A DNA stretch of 8,736 nt from the IMG/VR virus record IMGVR_UViG_2579778784_000003. One strand, written 5' to 3'. Position numbers and translations under genes: made by a program. Below the pieces are notes generated by a model, which did not search any database, was not told where the DNA came from, and was given only the letters and a program-made list of their open reading frames with translations. This DNA comes from a virus. Taxonomy: Duplodnaviria > Heunggongvirae > Uroviricota > Caudoviricetes. Shown piece after piece: positions 651 to 8,735 of this stretch. How positions within the stretch are numbered: position 1 is the first letter of the stretch; every line of letters begins with the position of its first letter.

Positions 651-676
651 AAAAAAGCCCGCCTGAACCGGCGGGC
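651..676 (-). terminator. Putative intrinsic terminator downstream of lom
   Basis: Minus-strand RNA would read GCCCGCC-GGUUCA-GGCGGGC followed by UUUUUU (plus strand: A-run 651..656, stem arms 657..663 and 670..676). A 7-bp GC-rich stem followed by a U-tract, oriented for minus-strand transcription, 28 nt after the lom stop and 12 nt before the stf start. Confidence 0.5.
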
Positions 677-703
677 TGTCATAACACTGTGTTACCTGGC
701 TAA

Positions 704-1303
704 TCAGAATTTATAACCGACACCAACGATGAAACCGTCAGTGCGCCAGTCGCCACTGCCGGAACCTTCATAAGCAATATCAATGGCCACGGATTCGGTC
801 GGGTTAAACTGCACGCCAGCCCCCCATGCCAGAGACGTGTCGCTGTGGCGACCGTCATCACTTCCGGTCAGCACATCGTGCGTTTTCCCCTTGTTGTCAG
901 TTACGCGGAGATAATCCCCGGAGAACGTCGAAACACGGCTGTAAGCCACACCCGCCATCGCATAAGCACTGAACCATTCATTCACGCGTACAGACGGCCC
1001 CGCCATCACGCTGAACCAGCGGTTACGCACTGAATCTTCATGCCAGCGGGTATCGCTGTAATGCGTTTTTTGCTCATCTTTGGCATTGGCATAACTGAAT
1101 GACGTCACCAGCCCCAGCGTGTCCGTAAATTCATAACGGTATTTCACGTTAATGCCCTTCAGGTCATCACTGCCTGGCATATCAGTATGGGTCTGAAGAT
1201 ACCCGGCGCTTAGTGTGGACTGATGCTCTGCTGCGCTCGCTGGCGTACCAGCGGCAACCAGCCAGACTACTGCGGACAGAATAACAGCACATAATTTACG
1301 CAT
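704..1303 (-). CDS. lom: Lom-family outer membrane protein (Ail/Lom/OmpX 8-stranded beta-barrel family), prophage moron
   Basis: 199-aa ORF. N-terminal signal peptide MRKLCAVILSAVVWLVAAGTPASA with an AxA cleavage motif. C-terminal block IDIAYEGSGSGDWRTDGFIVGVGYKF matches the lambda Lom C-terminus as I recall it; terminal aromatic residue typical of OM beta-barrels. Location between J and stf is the canonical lom position. RBS-like GAGAGG upstream. Confidence 0.9.
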   Translation of the reverse strand: MRKLCAVILSAVVWLVAAGTPASAAEHQSTLSAGYLQTHTDMPGSDDLKGINVKYRYEFTDTLGLVTSFSYANAKDEQKTHYSDTRWHEDSVRNRWFSVMAGPSVRVNEWFSAYAMAGVAYSRVSTFSGDYLRVTDNKGKTHDVLTGSDDGRHSDTSLAWGAGVQFNPTESVAIDIAYEGSGSGDWRTDGFIVGVGYKF

Positions 1304-1325: not shown

Positions 1326-1351
1326 ATAAAAAAGGCGTCATTTCTGACGCC
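1326..1351 (-). terminator. Putative intrinsic terminator downstream of J
   Basis: Minus-strand RNA would read GGCGUCA-GAAA-UGACGCC followed by UUUUUUAU (plus-strand stem arms 1334..1340 and 1345..1351, A-run 1326..1333). It starts 20 nt after the J stop, with a GNRA-like tetraloop. Confidence 0.55.
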
Positions 1352-1370
1352 CGTATTGGGGTTATAAAAT

Positions 1371-4300
1371 TCAGCTGATACTGATACCAGCTGTAGATTT
1401 CTTCATCACAACAACAAGAAGGTCGCTGATACTGGTCGTTGGCGTCCAGTTATTAGCACCATATGAAGAAACATTGAAAGTCAGGGTGACATGGCCGTGT
1501 CCGGCAGGCATATCAATGACTGATGAAAATACCCTGCTGACATCCGTCGCGGGTTGCTGAAAGATTTCCTGTCCGTTCTTCAGCACCTGCAGCTTACAGG
1601 TTGAATACCAGTATGACTGTTGGTTGTTGCTGTTGAAGTTTTCATGCTTACCACCGCGAAACAGAACGGGGGGGATTACTATCTGACGGTCAAAAGCCTG
1701 GTCATCGTACACAGTGACCGTTATTGTACCGCTGGCATAACTGCCATTTCTCGGAAAGGCTTTTCCCACCGTTTTGACAATATCACCTTCAATCTGGTTG
1801 GCTGACAGTTTTCCCAGAATCCGACAGTTCTGATTAATCGTGACGTTGTTGAGCGTCCCGGAGTTCGCGTTCACGTTACCGCTGATATCCGCATTTTTCG
1901 CCGTCAGTCGCCCGTCAGGTGTCAGTGAAAACGTTGGGGGATTGCCACCGCTGGTAATGGTGGGAGCCGTCAGATATTTCAGGAACACTTCGTTCATGAA
2001 TATCTGATCGCCCTGCCCAACAAACATCGGCTTTGTGTTGCCATTCGCAGGATTAATCATCGCAATCCTGTCTGCCGCCAGCAGCACCTGACTCTGCATA
2101 CCGTCGGGGGTGTTCTCAATACCGGCACCGATACCCGCGATATAAAGGCGTCCGTCCTGCATCTGCTGCAGCTTCACAGCCCACATGCTGTTCAGGTTAT
2201 TATTTGTATCAACCTGAACCTTCTGTATCTGCTGGATCGCTGCACTCTGGTCTTCCAGTTTCTTATTGACGGTCTGCGTGATTTCATTGCTGACACCCGT
2301 AATGGATGTCCTGATTTCAGCCAGGTCAGGCGCAAGCTGACCGTTATCAATCTGCGTCCACAACTCCTGAGCCAGGTGTGTTTTTCCTATCTCTCCTTTG
2401 AAAAAATCCAGATAGCCGGATGCGTCATCACTCGGCTGACCGACAGCCTCCACGAATGTCGATTTGCCGACGGTGTTCACACTGCGAACGTAAAAATAAT
2501 AATCATGGCCCGGTTTGATATTGATACTGGCGGCTATCCAGTACAGCGCCGTGCCAAGATAGCGGGCTGTGGTTTCAACCTGCCTGATATCCGCAATCCG
2601 CTTTTCCGAGAACCAGAACTCAAACTGTACCGTCGGATCATAAACCGCAAGATGCGGCGTGGCGGTTATCTGAAAATAGCCCGGCGTCAGCTCAATCCGC
2701 GACGGCGCTGCCGGTGCGGCAATCCGGAACGATACCGATGCCGGATCGCCCTGCTGTCCCCACGCATTTACCGCCCGGACCGTCAGCGTGTAACGCCCCA
2801 GCGCCAGTTGCCTGAAGCGGTATGTGGTTTCCGTCGTCCGGGCCGTGCTGACCAGCCGCTCACTGCCGTCGTCCGCTGTTACGGTCAGGCGAAGCAGGAA
2901 GCTCACCCCCTTCACCACCTTCGGTGTGTCCCAGCGCGCCAGCACCTGGTATTCCCCGCTGTCTGCGGTGACTTCTGCGGTCAGGTGCTGCACCGCTGGC
3001 GGCGTGACACCGTTTACCGTTCCGCTCTGGTCGCCGTCAAAGTGCGCCCCGTTATCCACGATGGCCTCTTTTTCCGGTACATGCTGCACGGCGGTGATGG
3101 CATACGTGCCGTCGTCGTTCTCACGGATACTCACGCAGCGGAACAGGCGCTGGCGCAACGTCGGCAGCTTCAGCCCCCATACGCTGTATTCAGCAACGCC
3201 GTCAGGAACACGGCTCACTTTCACCTTCACGCCGTCGGTGACGGACTGAACCTCCACGCTGACCGGACTCCCCTGCCCGTCAACCAGACTTATCAGCGTG
3301 GTGCCGGAAGATGGCAGCGTGATTTCACGGTCGAGCGTCAGCGTCCGGGTCTGGCTGTTTACCGCCAGCACGCGCCCGCCGGTGCGGATACCGGCATAGT
3401 CATCATCGCAGATTTCAATGACATCGCCCGGTACATGGCGAAGCCCTTCGGCACCCACGCTGAAATCCACGGTCTGCGTTTCCAGCAGTTCTGTTTTAAT
3501 CAGCCACAGCCCGGCGCGGTGTGCCTGCCCCCGGCTGGTACAGCCAAAAGCATCCATCTTCGTGACGTTACGACCGTAACGGGCAATGGCCTGCGTATCC
3601 TCCACAAGCTCTGTCGCCGTCTCCCAGCCGTTGTTCGGGTCAATCCAGTTCACCTCAACGGCATTATGGCGGTCTTTCAGGGCGCTGAAGCTGTAGCGGA
3701 ACGGCGCGCCATCATCCGGCATCACCACATTACTGCGGTTATAGGTCCACACCTTATCCGACGGTCGGTCCTGCACGAACGTCAGCGTCTGCCCGTTCCA
3801 TACCGGCATACAGCGCATCGCCGAGCAGAAATCACTGAGCACATCCCACGCCTTGCGCTGTGTGGTCAGGTAAGCGTTACAGGTGATGCGCGGCTCCGTG
3901 CCGCCAAAGCCGTCCGGCACCGACTGGTCGCAATTCTGGCCGATGACATACAGCGCCCATTTATCCACATCCGCCGCACCAAGACGTTTCCCCATGCCGT
4001 AGCGCGGATGGGTCAGCATATCCCACAGACACCAGGCCATGTTGTTGCTGTATGCCGGTTTTAACGTTCCGTCCCAGATACCGCTGTATTGCCGCGTCTG
4101 CGGGTTATAGTTCGACGGCACCTGCAGAATGCGCCCGCGAAGATGATAATTACGGCTCACCTGCTGGCTGCCGAACTGCTCCGAGTCCACCTGCACGCCA
4201 ACCAGTGCCGTGTTCGGGTAGCACTGTTTCACATCGATGATTTCGGTGTATGACGACCAGAGCGTTTTGTTCTGCAACTGGTCTGTGGTGCTGTCCGGCG

Positions 4301-4853
4301 TCATCCTGCGCATCCGGATATTAAACGGGCGCGGCGGCAGGTTATCCACCACCACCGAGGCCAGATACTGCGAGGTGGTTTTGCCCTTAATGGTGATGTC
4401 TTTTTCCGTCACCCAGCCACCGTTACGCTGTATCTGAACCAGCAGGCGAACTTCCGACGGATTCCTGTCTCCCTTTGAGGTGGTTTCCACCAGTGCCTGT
4501 ACACCGAAGGTAAAGCGCAGACGGTCGATGTTTGCCGACGTGATGGTCCGGGTGATCGGCGTGTCATATTTCACTTCCGTACCCAGCACCGTCTCGGAGC
4601 CGGAGGATTCAAATCCCTCCGGCGGTGACTGCTCCTGCTCACCGGCCCGGAACACCACCGTGACGCCGGATATATTGGTATTCCCCTCACTGTCCAGCAC
4701 CGGCGTACTGTTCAGCAGCACGCTTTTTAACCCATCCACCGGACCTTCAACCGGCCCTTCGCTGATGGCATCGATCACACTCAGCAACTGCGTGGACTTC
4801 AGGTTGTCCTTCGCTTCGCGCGGGGTATGCCCCTTACTGCTGCCTTTACCCAT
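1371..4853 (-). CDS. J: Tail tip host-specificity protein J (central tail fibre)
   Basis: 1160-aa ORF. N-terminus [54 protein letters not shown] and C-terminus ..[39 protein letters not shown] both recognisably match lambda J (1132 aa in lambda, from memory). GGAG RBS at about 4866..4863 (minus). Follows I and precedes lom as in lambda. Confidence 0.95.
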
Positions 4854-4913: not shown

Positions 4914-5561
4914 TCAGCGACCAATCACCACAACCTGACCACCGTCACCTTCGTCTGCCGTGCTGATCTCCTGAGAAACCACCCGCGACCCCACACGCAT
5001 TTCACCGTACAGAACAGGCAGAACATTGCCCTGAGCAACCATGTTATCCAGTGAGGAGAAATAGGTGTTCTGTTTGCCGTTATCTGTACTGGCTGCCGTG
5101 GGCGTCCTGGCTTTCGGTGCCAGCATCTGGGCCACACCACCCAGAATCATACTGGCCCCTGCCGCATACATGCCCGATACAGCCGCAGCACCCAGCCAGC
5201 CCACAGGGTTCCACCATGCCACCGCAATCAGCGCCGCCCCCAGCACCACCTGAAACACACCGCCACTTTTAGCTCCCGCCATACGCGGCACGATGTGAAT
5301 CACGGCACCATTTTCCAGCGGCTCATTAAGACGGGCAGATAATTCATTTTCGCCTGCATCACGCCCGGCAATGCGCACCTGATACCAGCCCTCATTCAGT
5401 TTCTGGCGAAACGACGGAAGCTGCGTGGCCAGCGCCCGGATGGCTTCAGCCCCCGTTTTCACACGAAGGTCGATGCGGCGGCCAAATCGTTGTAAATCCC
5501 CGTAAAGGCAGATGCGTGCCATGCCCGGTGACGCCAGAGGGAGTGTGTGCGTCGCTGCCAT
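4914..5561 (-). CDS. I: Tail tip assembly protein I
   Basis: 215-aa ORF. N-terminus MAATHTLPLASPGMARICLYGDLQRFGRRIDLRVKTGAEAIRALATQLP and C-terminus KQNTYFSSLDNMVAQGNVLPVLYGEMRVGSRVVSQEISTADEGDGGQVVVIGR match lambda I as recalled. Central Gly/Ala-rich hydrophobic segment. The 103-nt overlap with the 3' end of K is the same arrangement as in lambda. Confidence 0.9.
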   Translation of the reverse strand: MAATHTLPLASPGMARICLYGDLQRFGRRIDLRVKTGAEAIRALATQLPSFRQKLNEGWYQVRIAGRDAGENELSARLNEPLENGAVIHIVPRMAGAKSGGVFQVVLGAALIAVAWWNPVGWLGAAAVSGMYAAGASMILGGVAQMLAPKARTPTAASTDNGKQNTYFSSLDNMVAQGNVLPVLYGEMRVGSRVVSQEISTADEGDGGQVVVIGR

Positions 5562-6202
5562 TTGTCGGTATACCTCTCTCGTTTGCTCAGTTGTTCAGGA
5601 ATATGGTGCAGCAGCTCGCCGTCACCACAGTAAATGGCGGCATGATTCGGCACCGATGAACCAAAACAGCACAGCAGCACATCGCCCGGCTGCGCCGCTG
5701 ACAACGGCACCTGATACAGCCCTGTGGCCTCCAGATTATCCAGATAGAGATTCTGACCGTGACGCCACCAGTCATCCCCGCGATGAAAATCCGGCATCTC
5801 AATCCCCGCCAGATGGTAAGCATCCCGGAACAGCGTGTAACAGTCCGTCACCCCGTGCTCAAAGCGCCGCCCGGTAAGATGCGGCACACAGCGGAATTTA
5901 TGAATCTCACCCCGGCAGACCAGCCACCACGGCAAATCACTCTGCACCTGCAGCCGCCGGTCAGCCTCACTCAGCCAGGGCAGACCACCGGGGTGGCTGT
6001 GGACCAGCGCCACAATCTCACCCTGCGTCTCTGCCCGCAGCCAGTCCTCCGGCGACATCCGGAAATACTCCTCCGGCTCACCGGAGATATTCACGCAGGG
6101 AAAATATCTTTCCCCTTCCGGCGTTCTCACCACGAAGCCGCACGACTCCGCTGGCGCACATCGCCGGGCGTGCGCCAGAATCGCTGATTCTGTCTGTGTC
6201 AT
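5459..6202 (-). CDS. K: Tail tip assembly protein K (N-terminal MPN/JAMM-like domain plus C-terminal NlpC/P60-like domain)
   Basis: 247-aa ORF starting MTQTESAILAHARRCAPAESCGFVV. It contains HSHPGGLPWLSEAD, which fits the JAMM signature HxHx7Sx2D, and a downstream Cys (GVTDCYTLF) and His (NHAAIYCGDGELLHH) consistent with an NlpC/P60 papain-like fold. Start lies 5 nt after the L stop. An internal ATG at 6058..6056 (Met49) would give a 199-aa product, which I believe corresponds to the classical lambda K annotation. Confidence 0.88.
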   Translation of the reverse strand: MTQTESAILAHARRCAPAESCGFVVRTPEGERYFPCVNISGEPEEYFRMSPEDWLRAETQGEIVALVHSHPGGLPWLSEADRRLQVQSDLPWWLVCRGEIHKFRCVPHLTGRRFEHGVTDCYTLFRDAYHLAGIEMPDFHRGDDWWRHGQNLYLDNLEATGLYQVPLSAAQPGDVLLCCFGSSVPNHAAIYCGDGELLHHIPEQLSKRERYTDKWQRRTHSLWRHRAWHASAFTGIYNDLAAASTFV

Positions 6203-6207
6203 GGGAT

Positions 6208-6906
6208 TTACTGCGAAAGTTTGTTAATGGAAAGGAAGCCGCCAAAGTTGCTGACATTATTGCGGAACTTACAGCCACTCAGGCATTTGCTGCATTTATC
6301 CTTCGTGATATCGGACGTCGGCTGGTCATATTCATCCGCGACAGCCGGACCGTGATAACCACACTCATCGCCGCGATAGGTCCAGGTGCAGGTGTTGGCC
6401 AGCATGATACGCCCCGGAAAAACAGCACCATCCGTTTCCGTCGGTGTGGACAACACAAAGGAGGCACTGACCGCACTCAGTTCGCTGCACTGCTCGATGC
6501 GCCAGCGGCTGATCACCTCCTGCTCCGGATCGGCGTCGCTGTTTCCGTTGACGAAGTTCACCGCATCCAGAAAACGGGCGTAAACCTTACGCCGGACCAC
6601 CGTTCCTCCGACCAGACTCTGCAGGTCTTCCGCCATCCCGGTGACCATGCCGTGCAGGTTAGAAACCGTCAGTGTCGGACGGGCAGCACTGCCCTTGCCG
6701 TTCAGTTCAAATCCCGTCCCCTGAATGGGATACGCCTGATACTGTCGCCCCTGCCAGGTGACCGGCTCACCTTTTTCGTTCTGCTCATTACAGAAAAAAT
6801 AACGTTCTCCACCGACCACTGTCAGATCGATTTCCCAGAGCACCACCTGGGCTGACTGAGTGAGGCGTGTCGTCTCATGATGTGTTTCCTGTGGAATATC
6901 CTGCAT
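6208..6906 (-). CDS. L: Tail tip protein L
   Basis: 232-aa ORF, the same length as lambda L. N-terminus MQDIPQETHHETTRLTQSAQVVLWEIDLT and a C-terminal Cys-rich segment (..CTWTYRGDECGYHG..CSKCLSGCKF..) match lambda L as recalled. AGGAG RBS at about 6915..6911 (minus). Confidence 0.9.
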   Translation of the reverse strand: MQDIPQETHHETTRLTQSAQVVLWEIDLTVVGGERYFFCNEQNEKGEPVTWQGRQYQAYPIQGTGFELNGKGSAARPTLTVSNLHGMVTGMAEDLQSLVGGTVVRRKVYARFLDAVNFVNGNSDADPEQEVISRWRIEQCSELSAVSASFVLSTPTETDGAVFPGRIMLANTCTWTYRGDECGYHGPAVADEYDQPTSDITKDKCSKCLSGCKFRNNVSNFGGFLSINKLSQ

Positions 6907-6915
6907 CAGAGACTC

Positions 6916-7386
6916 CTATGCCACGACCTGTTCAAAATCTGCCGTTATGGTTACCCACAACGCCCCCACGCTTACCGACCATTTACGACAAACCACCCTG
7001 ATCGGCTTCCAGTCATAAGGTGGCGTCCACTGAAATGCGCGGACGCCACCGTGCCGTTCCAGAAAGGCTTTTAAAGATGGGTGTTCACATTTACGAACAC
7101 GTATCGTCACGCTGTAAGTCGACAACTGGTTATTCAGTCCCGCCGCACGACGCTGTTCATAACCATCGCCCAGCTTCACTGTCACCACACCGTGCCGTTC
7201 CAGAAAGGCTTTTAAAGATGGGTGTTCACATTTACGAACACGTATCGTCACGCTGTAAGTCGACAACTGGTTATTCAGTCCCGCCGCACGACGCTGTTCA
7301 TAACCATCGCCCAGCTTCACTGTCACCACTTTCGGCTCTGATACCACATTCATATCCGGGCGCACTTTCCAGTGAAACGTCTCCAT
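6916..7386 (-). CDS. M: Tail tip protein M carrying an internal 47-aa in-frame tandem duplication
   Basis: 156-aa ORF. N-terminus METFHWKVRPDMNVVSEPKVV and C-terminus FQWTPPYDWKPIRVVCRKWS..FEQVVA resemble lambda M (about 109 aa). The block VVTVKLGDGYEQRRAAGLNNQLSTYSVTIRVRKCEHPSLKAFLERHG occurs twice in direct succession. The start ATG (7386..7384) overlaps the H stop TAA (7388..7386) by 1 nt. Confidence 0.85.
   Translation of the reverse strand: METFHWKVRPDMNVVSEPKVVTVKLGDGYEQRRAAGLNNQLSTYSVTIRVRKCEHPSLKAFLERHGVVTVKLGDGYEQRRAAGLNNQLSTYSVTIRVRKCEHPSLKAFLERHGGVRAFQWTPPYDWKPIRVVCRKWSVSVGALWVTITADFEQVVA
7047..7329. repeat. Perfect direct tandem duplication, 2 x 141 bp, inside M
   Basis: Base-by-base comparison of 7047..7187 with 7188..7328 found no mismatches. 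Identity also extends one base to 7329, and it breaks at 7046 vs 7187 and at 7189 vs 7330. The period of 141 bp equals 47 codons, so the frame is preserved. Confidence 0.9.
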
Positions 7387-8735
7387 TACCGATATGCTCC
7401 ACTTAACCGACCACCATCACGGGCCTGCTGTTGCATAAAGTCCGCTGCCGCTTTTTTCCCAAGGTCATAAACCACCTTCAGGGCAGCCGGACCTATCTGC
7501 CCGTTCGTGCCATCGTTATTGATCTCGATGTTGTACTGCGGGGCAAACATCGCCATACCTGAACCACCAATGTCCGCCACAACCCCCAGCTTACCGTCAG
7601 CACCACGACGCAGTGGCAGAATGGCTTCAGGTCCAGCTTCCCCCATCACACCCGCGCCTTTTGCAAAAGCAAAAAACGTCGGACGGTTAACCACCGTGCC
7701 ACTGTAACGACTCAAATCAGCAGACTGATAAATCCCCCCATTGGCATTCAGGGAAAGGCTGCTGAGATCAAATCCCAGTACACTGCCAATCCCTTTTATC
7801 GATTTCATCACGGTTGCCTGCGCCAGGATCTTCGCCATATCTGACAGCACCGAAGAGGTGAAGGATTTGAAGTTGAGTTTGCCGGTAGTGACAAAAGTTG
7901 CCAGGCCATTTCCCATGTTGCTGAAGGCTGACGAGAACACCTGTTCTGCTGTTCCTGCCGTATTGTCTGCATCCACGGTAAAATCCTGAAATGCACGCAG
8001 GACTCCGTTTTTCCAGTTACCCTGCACAACTTCAAGCTGTTGCCAGTAACGGCGATTCTCATTCAGTTGTCGGTTCAGGCTCTCCGTCAGCGCCTGCTCG
8101 GACTTTCTGTAGTCATCCGTGTTATATGTCCCTTTCTGCTCACTATCCCGCCTCAACTGCTCCAGCTGTTGCTGGTATTTCTGGCGAAGACTCAGTTGTA
8201 CCTGATATCGCTGCCGCTGCTGATCACCCATACCCACCGTGGCGATATCCAGGTCATGTTGCTGACGCTGAGCGCGCTCTTCTTCAGCCAGTTGACTGGT
8301 CAGCTGAATTGTTTTTTTCTTCAGCTCGTTGAGTGCCGTCTGTTTCTGAAGCTCCTGCTGTTTTACATCCAGCAGCGTCAGTGCCTGAATCAGTTCATCT
8401 TTACGGGCCAGCACACTCTTTTCATCTGCCGTCAGTTTTTTCCCGTCCAGGTCGCTGATGCGCTGCTGCAGAGCCAGAAGCTGTTTATGCGCTTCTGTCA
8501 TCCTTTCCGTGGCAATGCCTGCTGACTGTCTGGCAGCAGCAATCTGTCCTTCCACCTGTGCCTGTTGCTGACTGTACTGCAGCAATAACCGGGTGGCCTC
8601 ATCATTACGGGTTTCGCGTGTTTTTTTCTTACCGGATGCCAGGGCTTTCTCGTAACGTTCATTTTCACGTTGTATCGCCGCATCCCTGACAGCCTGATCG
8701 GCGTACTGCATGGCATTAATACGCGCAATTTCACG
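7386..8735 (-). CDS. H: Tail tape measure protein H, C-terminal portion (5' end lies beyond the window end)
   Basis: The ORF track gives 441 aa from an internal Met at 8711, but the frame stays open to the window edge (hand-translated upstream codons give ..REIARINA-MQYADQ.. with no stop), so the true start is outside the window. Gln/Glu/Leu-rich coiled-coil-like stretch followed by a Gly/Ser-rich C-terminal region, typical of tape measure proteins. Position immediately upstream of M with a 1-nt stop/start overlap matches lambda H-M. Confidence 0.88.
   Translation of the reverse strand, partial: REIARINAMQYADQAVRDAAIQRENERYEKALASGKKKTRETRNDEATRLLLQYSQQQAQVEGQIAAARQSAGIATERMTEAHKQLLALQQRISDLDGKKLTADEKSVLARKDELIQALTLLDVKQQELQKQTALNELKKKTIQLTSQLAEEERAQRQQHDLDIATVGMGDQQRQRYQVQLSLRQKYQQQLEQLRRDSEQKGTYNTDDYRKSEQALTESLNRQLNENRRYWQQLEVVQGNWKNGVLRAFQDFTVDADNTAGTAEQVFSSAFSNMGNGLATFVTTGKLNFKSFTSSVLSDMAKILAQATVMKSIKGIGSVLGFDLSSLSLNANGGIYQSADLSRYSGTVVNRPTFFAFAKGAGVMGEAGPEAILPLRRGADGKLGVVADIGGSGMAMFAPQYNIEINNDGTNGQIGPAALKVVYDLGKKAAADFMQQQARDGGRLSGAYR

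Follow-up and report, generated by a model that had tools for sequence, protein, structure and literature searches.

The stretch of DNA analysed here (the window) is 8,736 bp long and corresponds to the tail-tip region of a lambdoid prophage. Its genes were identified from open reading frames and Pfam matches, and lie in the lambdoid order H-M-L-K-I-J-lom-stf. The features are, from the upstream end:

7386-8711, minus strand: H, C-terminal part (ORF and Pfam)
6916-7386, minus strand: M (ORF and Pfam)
6208-6906, minus strand: L (ORF and Pfam)
5459-6202, minus strand: K (ORF and Pfam)
4914-5561, minus strand: I (ORF and Pfam)
1371-4853, minus strand: J, tip attachment protein or central tail fibre, an intact ORF of 1160 amino acids, stop codon included
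1333-1352, minus strand: terminator-like hairpin and T-run just downstream of J (consensus scan; phage 21 has an annotated terminator at this position too)
704-1303, minus strand: lom, an Ail/Lom outer-membrane protein of 199 amino acids encoded downstream of J (PF06316)
656-677, minus strand: terminator-like hairpin and T-run directly after lom (consensus scan)
running off the window at position 1, minus strand: side tail fibre gene (stf), start only

The hairpins after J and lom are strong matches; a third, weaker terminator-like match (1372-1393, minus strand) overlaps the J stop codon. Contig JJNT01000064.1 of draft assembly GCA_000696545.1 consists of exactly this window, whose ends fall inside H and stf. 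Contigs bounded by repeats in this way are typical of genomes that carry several lambdoid prophages, and the sequence may be a consensus that is collapsed or chimeric. We also observed that M encodes 156 amino acids, as compared to 109 in lambda and phage 21, due to a perfect in-frame tandem duplication of 141 bp (47 codons) at 7047-7329. A 100-nt query spanning the duplication junction matched 1773 complete E. coli genomes; among the matches listed, the two pieces of the query spanned 142 bp, the arrangement of a single copy. The duplication either is real but rare or arose during assembly.

The J reading frame is free of frameshifts and premature stop codons. Its stop codon occupies positions 1371-1373, and positions 1374-1850 on the minus strand are its last 159 codons (residues 1002-1160). 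The length of 1160 amino acids given by the first-pass annotation, as compared to 1132 for lambda J, was confirmed from the intact ORF and from the lambda reference. Six Pfam domains were found above their cut-offs, in the order FNIII-A_GpJ, Phage-tail_3, Ig_J, Ig_J_second, Phage_Tail_Tip, Ig_GpJ_C. A phmmer comparison of J with lambda gpJ chains gave an E-value of 0. For residues 866-1160, the E-value was 4.8e-95 with the gpJ713 chain of lambda and 1e-144 with A8 gpJ, indicating that homology of this region to both proteins is far above chance. The series of domains, the gene order and the predicted fold described below all place J in the family of lambda-type tip attachment proteins. Within J, we distinguished the following segments and codons:

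2406-4853, minus strand: residues 1-816, lambda-like hub and FNIII/Ig domains (96.9% amino acid identity to lambda J)
2259-2405, minus strand: residues 817-865, divergent alpha-helical shaft segment with 28 extra residues relative to lambda (22% identity, 27 gap positions)
1854-2240, minus strand: residues 872-1000, central straight fibre (Pfam Phage_Tail_Tip, PF09327, E = 1.7e-31), with a conserved island at residues ~941-1000
1374-1781, minus strand: residues 1025-1160, Ig-like receptor-binding domain of the phage 21 type (PF12421, Ig_GpJ_C, at residues 1038-1160, E = 1.4e-37; beta-sandwich in the AlphaFold2 model)
1779-1781, minus strand: codon 1025, read as ATT (Ile), the wild-type state
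1674-1676, minus strand: codon 1060, ATC (Ile), where GenBank phage 21 has GTC (Val); the sole difference in the last 160 residues
1641-1643, minus strand: codon 1071, GAA (Glu), the start of predicted distal loop 2; the same as in GenBank phage 21

We aligned J globally with lambda J (NC_001416, 1132 amino acids) and calculated identity for each segment. The near-identity of residues 1-816 gives way to 22% identity in residues 817-865, followed by 63% in residues 866-992. In the last 160 residues, identity is about 46-47.5% depending on the alignment used, with five gap positions that make up three indels. Residues 973-1132 of lambda J and the corresponding domain of the window J are thus far from being the same allele (47.5%), with 84 of the 160 residues lacking an identical residue in lambda. 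The first-pass annotation had described this region as differing from lambda at many positions, and had proposed a C-terminal pairwise alignment as a check; that alignment returned 47.5% identity with three indels rather than near-identity, a greater distance than the description conveyed. The divergence it noted in the last ~150 residues is real, but the divergent block is larger, spanning the whole C-terminal ~345 residues (shaft, straight fibre and receptor-binding domain) and starting near residue 800-817 rather than near residue ~1010. The surplus of 28 residues, which had been associated with the receptor-binding region, is instead found in the alpha-helical shaft, as an insertion of 21+7 residues at ~836-865. 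Similarly, three strings that had been put forward as conserved anchors are all present in J (13 residues at 1017-1029, 10 at 1112-1121 and 12 at 1141-1152), but only 7 of 13, 6 of 10 and 6 of 12 of their residues are identical in lambda.

The identity profile of the DNA has a sharp edge. In 150-nt windows, identity to lambda is 91-99% up to nucleotide 2393 of the gene, at about codon 798, and is then mostly 40-65% over the last 1.1 kb. This abrupt break near codon 800 indicates exchange of a module, as opposed to a build-up of point mutations. Residues ~941-1000 (window positions 1854-2031) form an island of conservation relative to lambda, with 85-92% amino acid identity and 83% DNA identity. 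On either side of the island lie divergent regions, the shaft and the receptor-binding domain. The island contains the fusion point used by Brodel et al. (lambda residue 964); it is plausibly a natural site of recombination. In lambda, the alpha-helical shaft comprises residues 809-861, and flips and refolds upon receptor binding (PMC11101478). The counterpart in the window J, residues 817-865, is practically unalignable with the lambda shaft and is 28 residues longer.

The three indels in the receptor-binding domain are located at lambda residues 1011-1014, about 1053/54, and 1103, corresponding to predicted loops 1, 2 and 4. Across 1207 natural J homologues, hotspots of indel and sequence variation have been described at lambda residues 1012, 1048/49, 1077/78 and 1107 (Maddamsetti et al., 2018), and the three indels in J lie at or near three of these four (1012, 1048/49 and 1107).

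We generated an AlphaFold2 monomer model of residues 1001-1160 from a 31-sequence alignment. The homologue set behind this alignment consists mostly of short fragment ORFs, some of them frameshifted, and was used for structure prediction and not for a census of alleles. The mean pLDDT of the model is 79; most 10-residue blocks between residues ~1031 and 1150 score 83-97, with values falling in places to 68 and 79. The predicted fold is a beta-sandwich with its first strand at residues 1025-1031, and the top four PDB matches to the model are all gpJ fibre tips, with TM scores of 0.75-0.81. The closest are 9wca and 9wcb, the A8 gpJ 713 central tail fibre (82% identity, TM 0.80-0.81), followed by 8xck and 8xcj, the lambda fibre tip (47% identity, TM 0.75-0.76). 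9wca is the closed form of A8 gpJ 713 and 9wcb the open form bound to OmpC of E. coli EDL933; a literature search found no paper describing these two entries. 8xck and 8xcj are the closed and LamB-bound forms of the lambda tip, respectively. The model predicts distal loops at about residues 1032-1041, 1072-1080, 1103-1106 and 1133-1144, their placement at the "bottom" of the domain being suggested by its topology, and these four loops agree with bottom loops L1-L4 of lambda.

We next compared J with phage sequences by tblastn, using its last 159 residues to search 50,697 phage records. Matches were found in 243 records, with 22 at 99.4% identity, 69 at 80-90% and 97 below 60%. The 22 records at 99.4% are led by phage 21 (OL657228) and include many gut isolates labelled lambda-like; the 80-90% set consists mainly of Stx-converting phages together with BP-4795. 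The J proteins of the window and of phage 21 (OL657228, CPT_21_21) are equal in length and differ at 23 of 1160 residues (98% identity), with DNA identity of 92-100% in every 150-nt window of the gene. Only three of the differences fall after residue 816 (V912I, S984T and V1060I), the remainder being in the N-terminal body. Over the last 160 residues, 159 are identical, and the exception, V1060I, is conservative. Ile at position 1060 lies in a predicted beta-strand and is common to BP-4795, A8 gpJ and the 741-member protein cluster P0001. Moreover, phage 21 J shares the shaft that is 28 residues longer than that of lambda, the same pattern of indels relative to lambda, and I1025. From these sequence comparisons, the C-terminus of J is the phage 21 allele of an exchangeable specificity module, joined to a lambda-like N-terminal body. 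The description "lambda-like but substituted" does not fit a domain that matches a separate natural allele at 159 of 160 residues.

The phage 21 allele family is very common in E. coli genomes: when we compared the 480 nt of DNA encoding the receptor-binding domain with 5426 complete E. coli genomes, 1083 records had at least 95% identity, 24 of these at least 99%. No exact copy of the window was found in complete E. coli genomes, the best match to the whole window being 96% and the best match to the receptor-binding-domain DNA 99.8%. The allele itself is already known and nothing about it is new here; its sequence has been published as part of phage 21 (Feiss et al., 2022; PMC9119081), there are studies of which receptors it uses and how readily that use evolves, and a cryo-EM structure exists for a close relative.

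The ancestral laboratory phage 21 infects through LamB only (PMC11336670; bioRxiv 10.1101/2023.04.13.536812). A single substitution in its J protein, I1025T, adds the use of OmpC (PMC11336670), and further J mutations add OmpF (PMC11336670; bioRxiv 10.1101/2023.04.13.536812). The window J retains I1025, with which phage 21 is unable to use OmpC. Based on this, and on the identity of 159 of 160 residues with phage 21, we consider LamB the likely receptor of the window J, the same as that of lambda despite only 47% identity between the two domains. The prediction falls short of certainty because a relative, A8 gpJ, uses OmpC, and because the phage 21 that was tested differs from the window J at two positions. 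One of these is residue 1060. The other follows from a report that the laboratory phage 21 tested for LamB use carries G18903A in J relative to the GenBank sequence (bioRxiv 10.1101/2023.04.13.536812); by our own reading of the coordinates, this mutation would change codon 1071 from GAA to AAA (E1071K), at the start of the predicted receptor-facing loop 2. Codon 1071 (window positions 1641-1643; position 6208 of L001) encodes Glu or Gln in the window and in the related natural alleles that were checked. Searches of the literature on other carriers of the allele (Lambda_ev and mEp460 isolates, ECOR phages) gave no usable receptor data, and a paper on an EHEC phage was set aside as receptor evidence, its J being different and distant.

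Three other explanations of the domain were weighed against a phage 21 allele that recognises LamB. One is that J carries the lambda receptor-binding domain with accumulated point substitutions of the host-range type. The fold and the protein overall are indeed lambda-like, residues 1-816 being 97% identical to lambda, and host-range substitutions in lambda do fall in the C-terminal region of J. However, lambda after experimental evolution carries 4-10 substitutions and no indels, as compared to 84 of 160 residues unmatched and three indels here; DNA identity in the last 1.1 kb is mostly 40-65%, after an abrupt drop near codon 800; and the same allele is present essentially unchanged in phage 21 and at 99.4% identity in 22 phage records. 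The amino acid and DNA identity profiles rule out a point-substituted lambda J, and we rejected this explanation as having next to no probability. It is also improbable, albeit less extremely so, that J belongs to a defective or mis-assembled prophage remnant and that its domain has no current function in adsorption. That possibility is raised by the window being a whole contig that ends inside H and stf, and by the perfect 141-bp duplication in M, where the E. coli genomes listed appear to have a single copy; against it, all eight ORFs of the window are uninterrupted and co-linear with those of lambda, and J is intact, with only 2% of its residues differing from those of an infectious phage's J.

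The remaining alternative concerns the receptor, and would have the domain bind OmpC, alone or together with LamB, as do A8 and 1A2 gpJ and evolved phage 21; the receptor would then differ from that of lambda. An A8 gpJ chimera, engineered by joining the A8 sequence to lambda at residue 964, uses OmpC for DNA delivery into cells from which lamB has been deleted, and a 1A2 chimera also binds OmpC (Brodel et al., 2024; PMC11338833). The A8 protein sequence, which we took from the PDB alignment, is 82.5% identical to J over the last 160 residues, is the closest relative with a solved structure (and that structure is OmpC-bound), and matches the window J at every residue of predicted loops 2 and 4 and the C-terminal strand. 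Furthermore, phage 21 acquired OmpC use through a single J mutation in all replicates of a coevolution experiment, and the window J has E1071, as does A8, while the laboratory phage 21 that uses only LamB would, by our reading, have K1071. By contrast, J retains I1025, and 82.5% identity is well short of near-identity to A8: 28 of the 160 residues differ, and these differences cluster in predicted loops 1 and 3 and on exposed strands at ~1047-1049, 1087-1092 and 1099-1107. The difference from phage 21 at residue 1060 is a conservative one in a predicted strand, and Ile and Val at this position do not separate the two receptor types, Ile occurring in alleles on both sides. Taking these observations together, we consider OmpC binding unlikely for the window J. 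Nonetheless, porin specificity is labile in the clade of phage 21 and A8, in that phage 21 is one mutation from OmpC use, and A8 and 1A2 bind OmpC. The caution in the first-pass annotation that the receptor could not safely be equated with that of lambda was therefore sound in principle, given that an 82%-identical domain binds OmpC, although the receptor we predict is the same one, LamB.

Overall, the explanation we favour, and hold to be probable, is that this end of J is the phage 21 allele of an Ig-like receptor-binding domain, which in a lambdoid prophage forms the tip of the central tail fibre and here most likely has LamB as its receptor. What we computed for J is its sequence relationships, architecture and fold; trimer formation, recognition of LamB and the mechanism of opening are carried over by homology. 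By analogy with the structures of lambda and A8 gpJ, three copies of the domain would cap the distal end of a trimeric straight fibre, and the four distal loops would enter a trimeric outer-membrane porin from its extracellular side. Porin binding would be expected to spread the domains at the bottom and close them at the top, with the straight fibre twisting. The alpha-helical shaft may then flip and partly refold, with dissociation of the FNIII domains, and the tail tip would presumably open for ejection of DNA.

The comparison with lambda and A8 bears on how receptors are predicted for lambdoid prophages. The lambda domain has the same Ig-like fold, the same four distal loops, the same position at the fibre tip and probably the same receptor, LamB, but identity is only ~47%, three of its four loop regions contain indels, and its shaft is 28 residues shorter. 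Here the lambda domain, at 47% identity, probably has the same receptor, whereas the A8 domain, at 82% identity, goes with a different one. This suggests that the C-terminal module should be matched to characterised alleles (lambda, 21, A8, 1A2 and 434), rather than relying on the overall similarity of J. The J C-terminus is a textbook case of an exchangeable lambdoid specificity module, and the importance of the window itself extends little beyond correct annotation. The phage 21 allele family is widespread, however, and its receptor use is relevant to the host range of prophages and to engineered lambda delivery vectors. There is a slim chance that the natural domain with E1071 and I1060 differs from the K1071 laboratory phage 21, using OmpC besides LamB or recognising other LamB variants. 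If so, the receptor range of a very common prophage allele would be misrepresented by the laboratory strain.

Lastly, we compared the arrangement of the window with those of related phages. BP-4795, one of the Stx-converting and related lambdoid phages, carries a J of the same allele family, with 89% identity in the last 160 residues, although the remainder of its J is far more distant (73% DNA identity overall); no published receptor for BP-4795 J was found. In phage 21, J is followed directly by the side tail fibre gene and lom is missing, whereas in the window, as in lambda and BP-4795, lom lies between J and the side tail fibre gene. The presence of lom here and its absence from phage 21 indicate that the tail module is itself mosaic, with a phage-21-type J set in a tail end that has been assembled differently.
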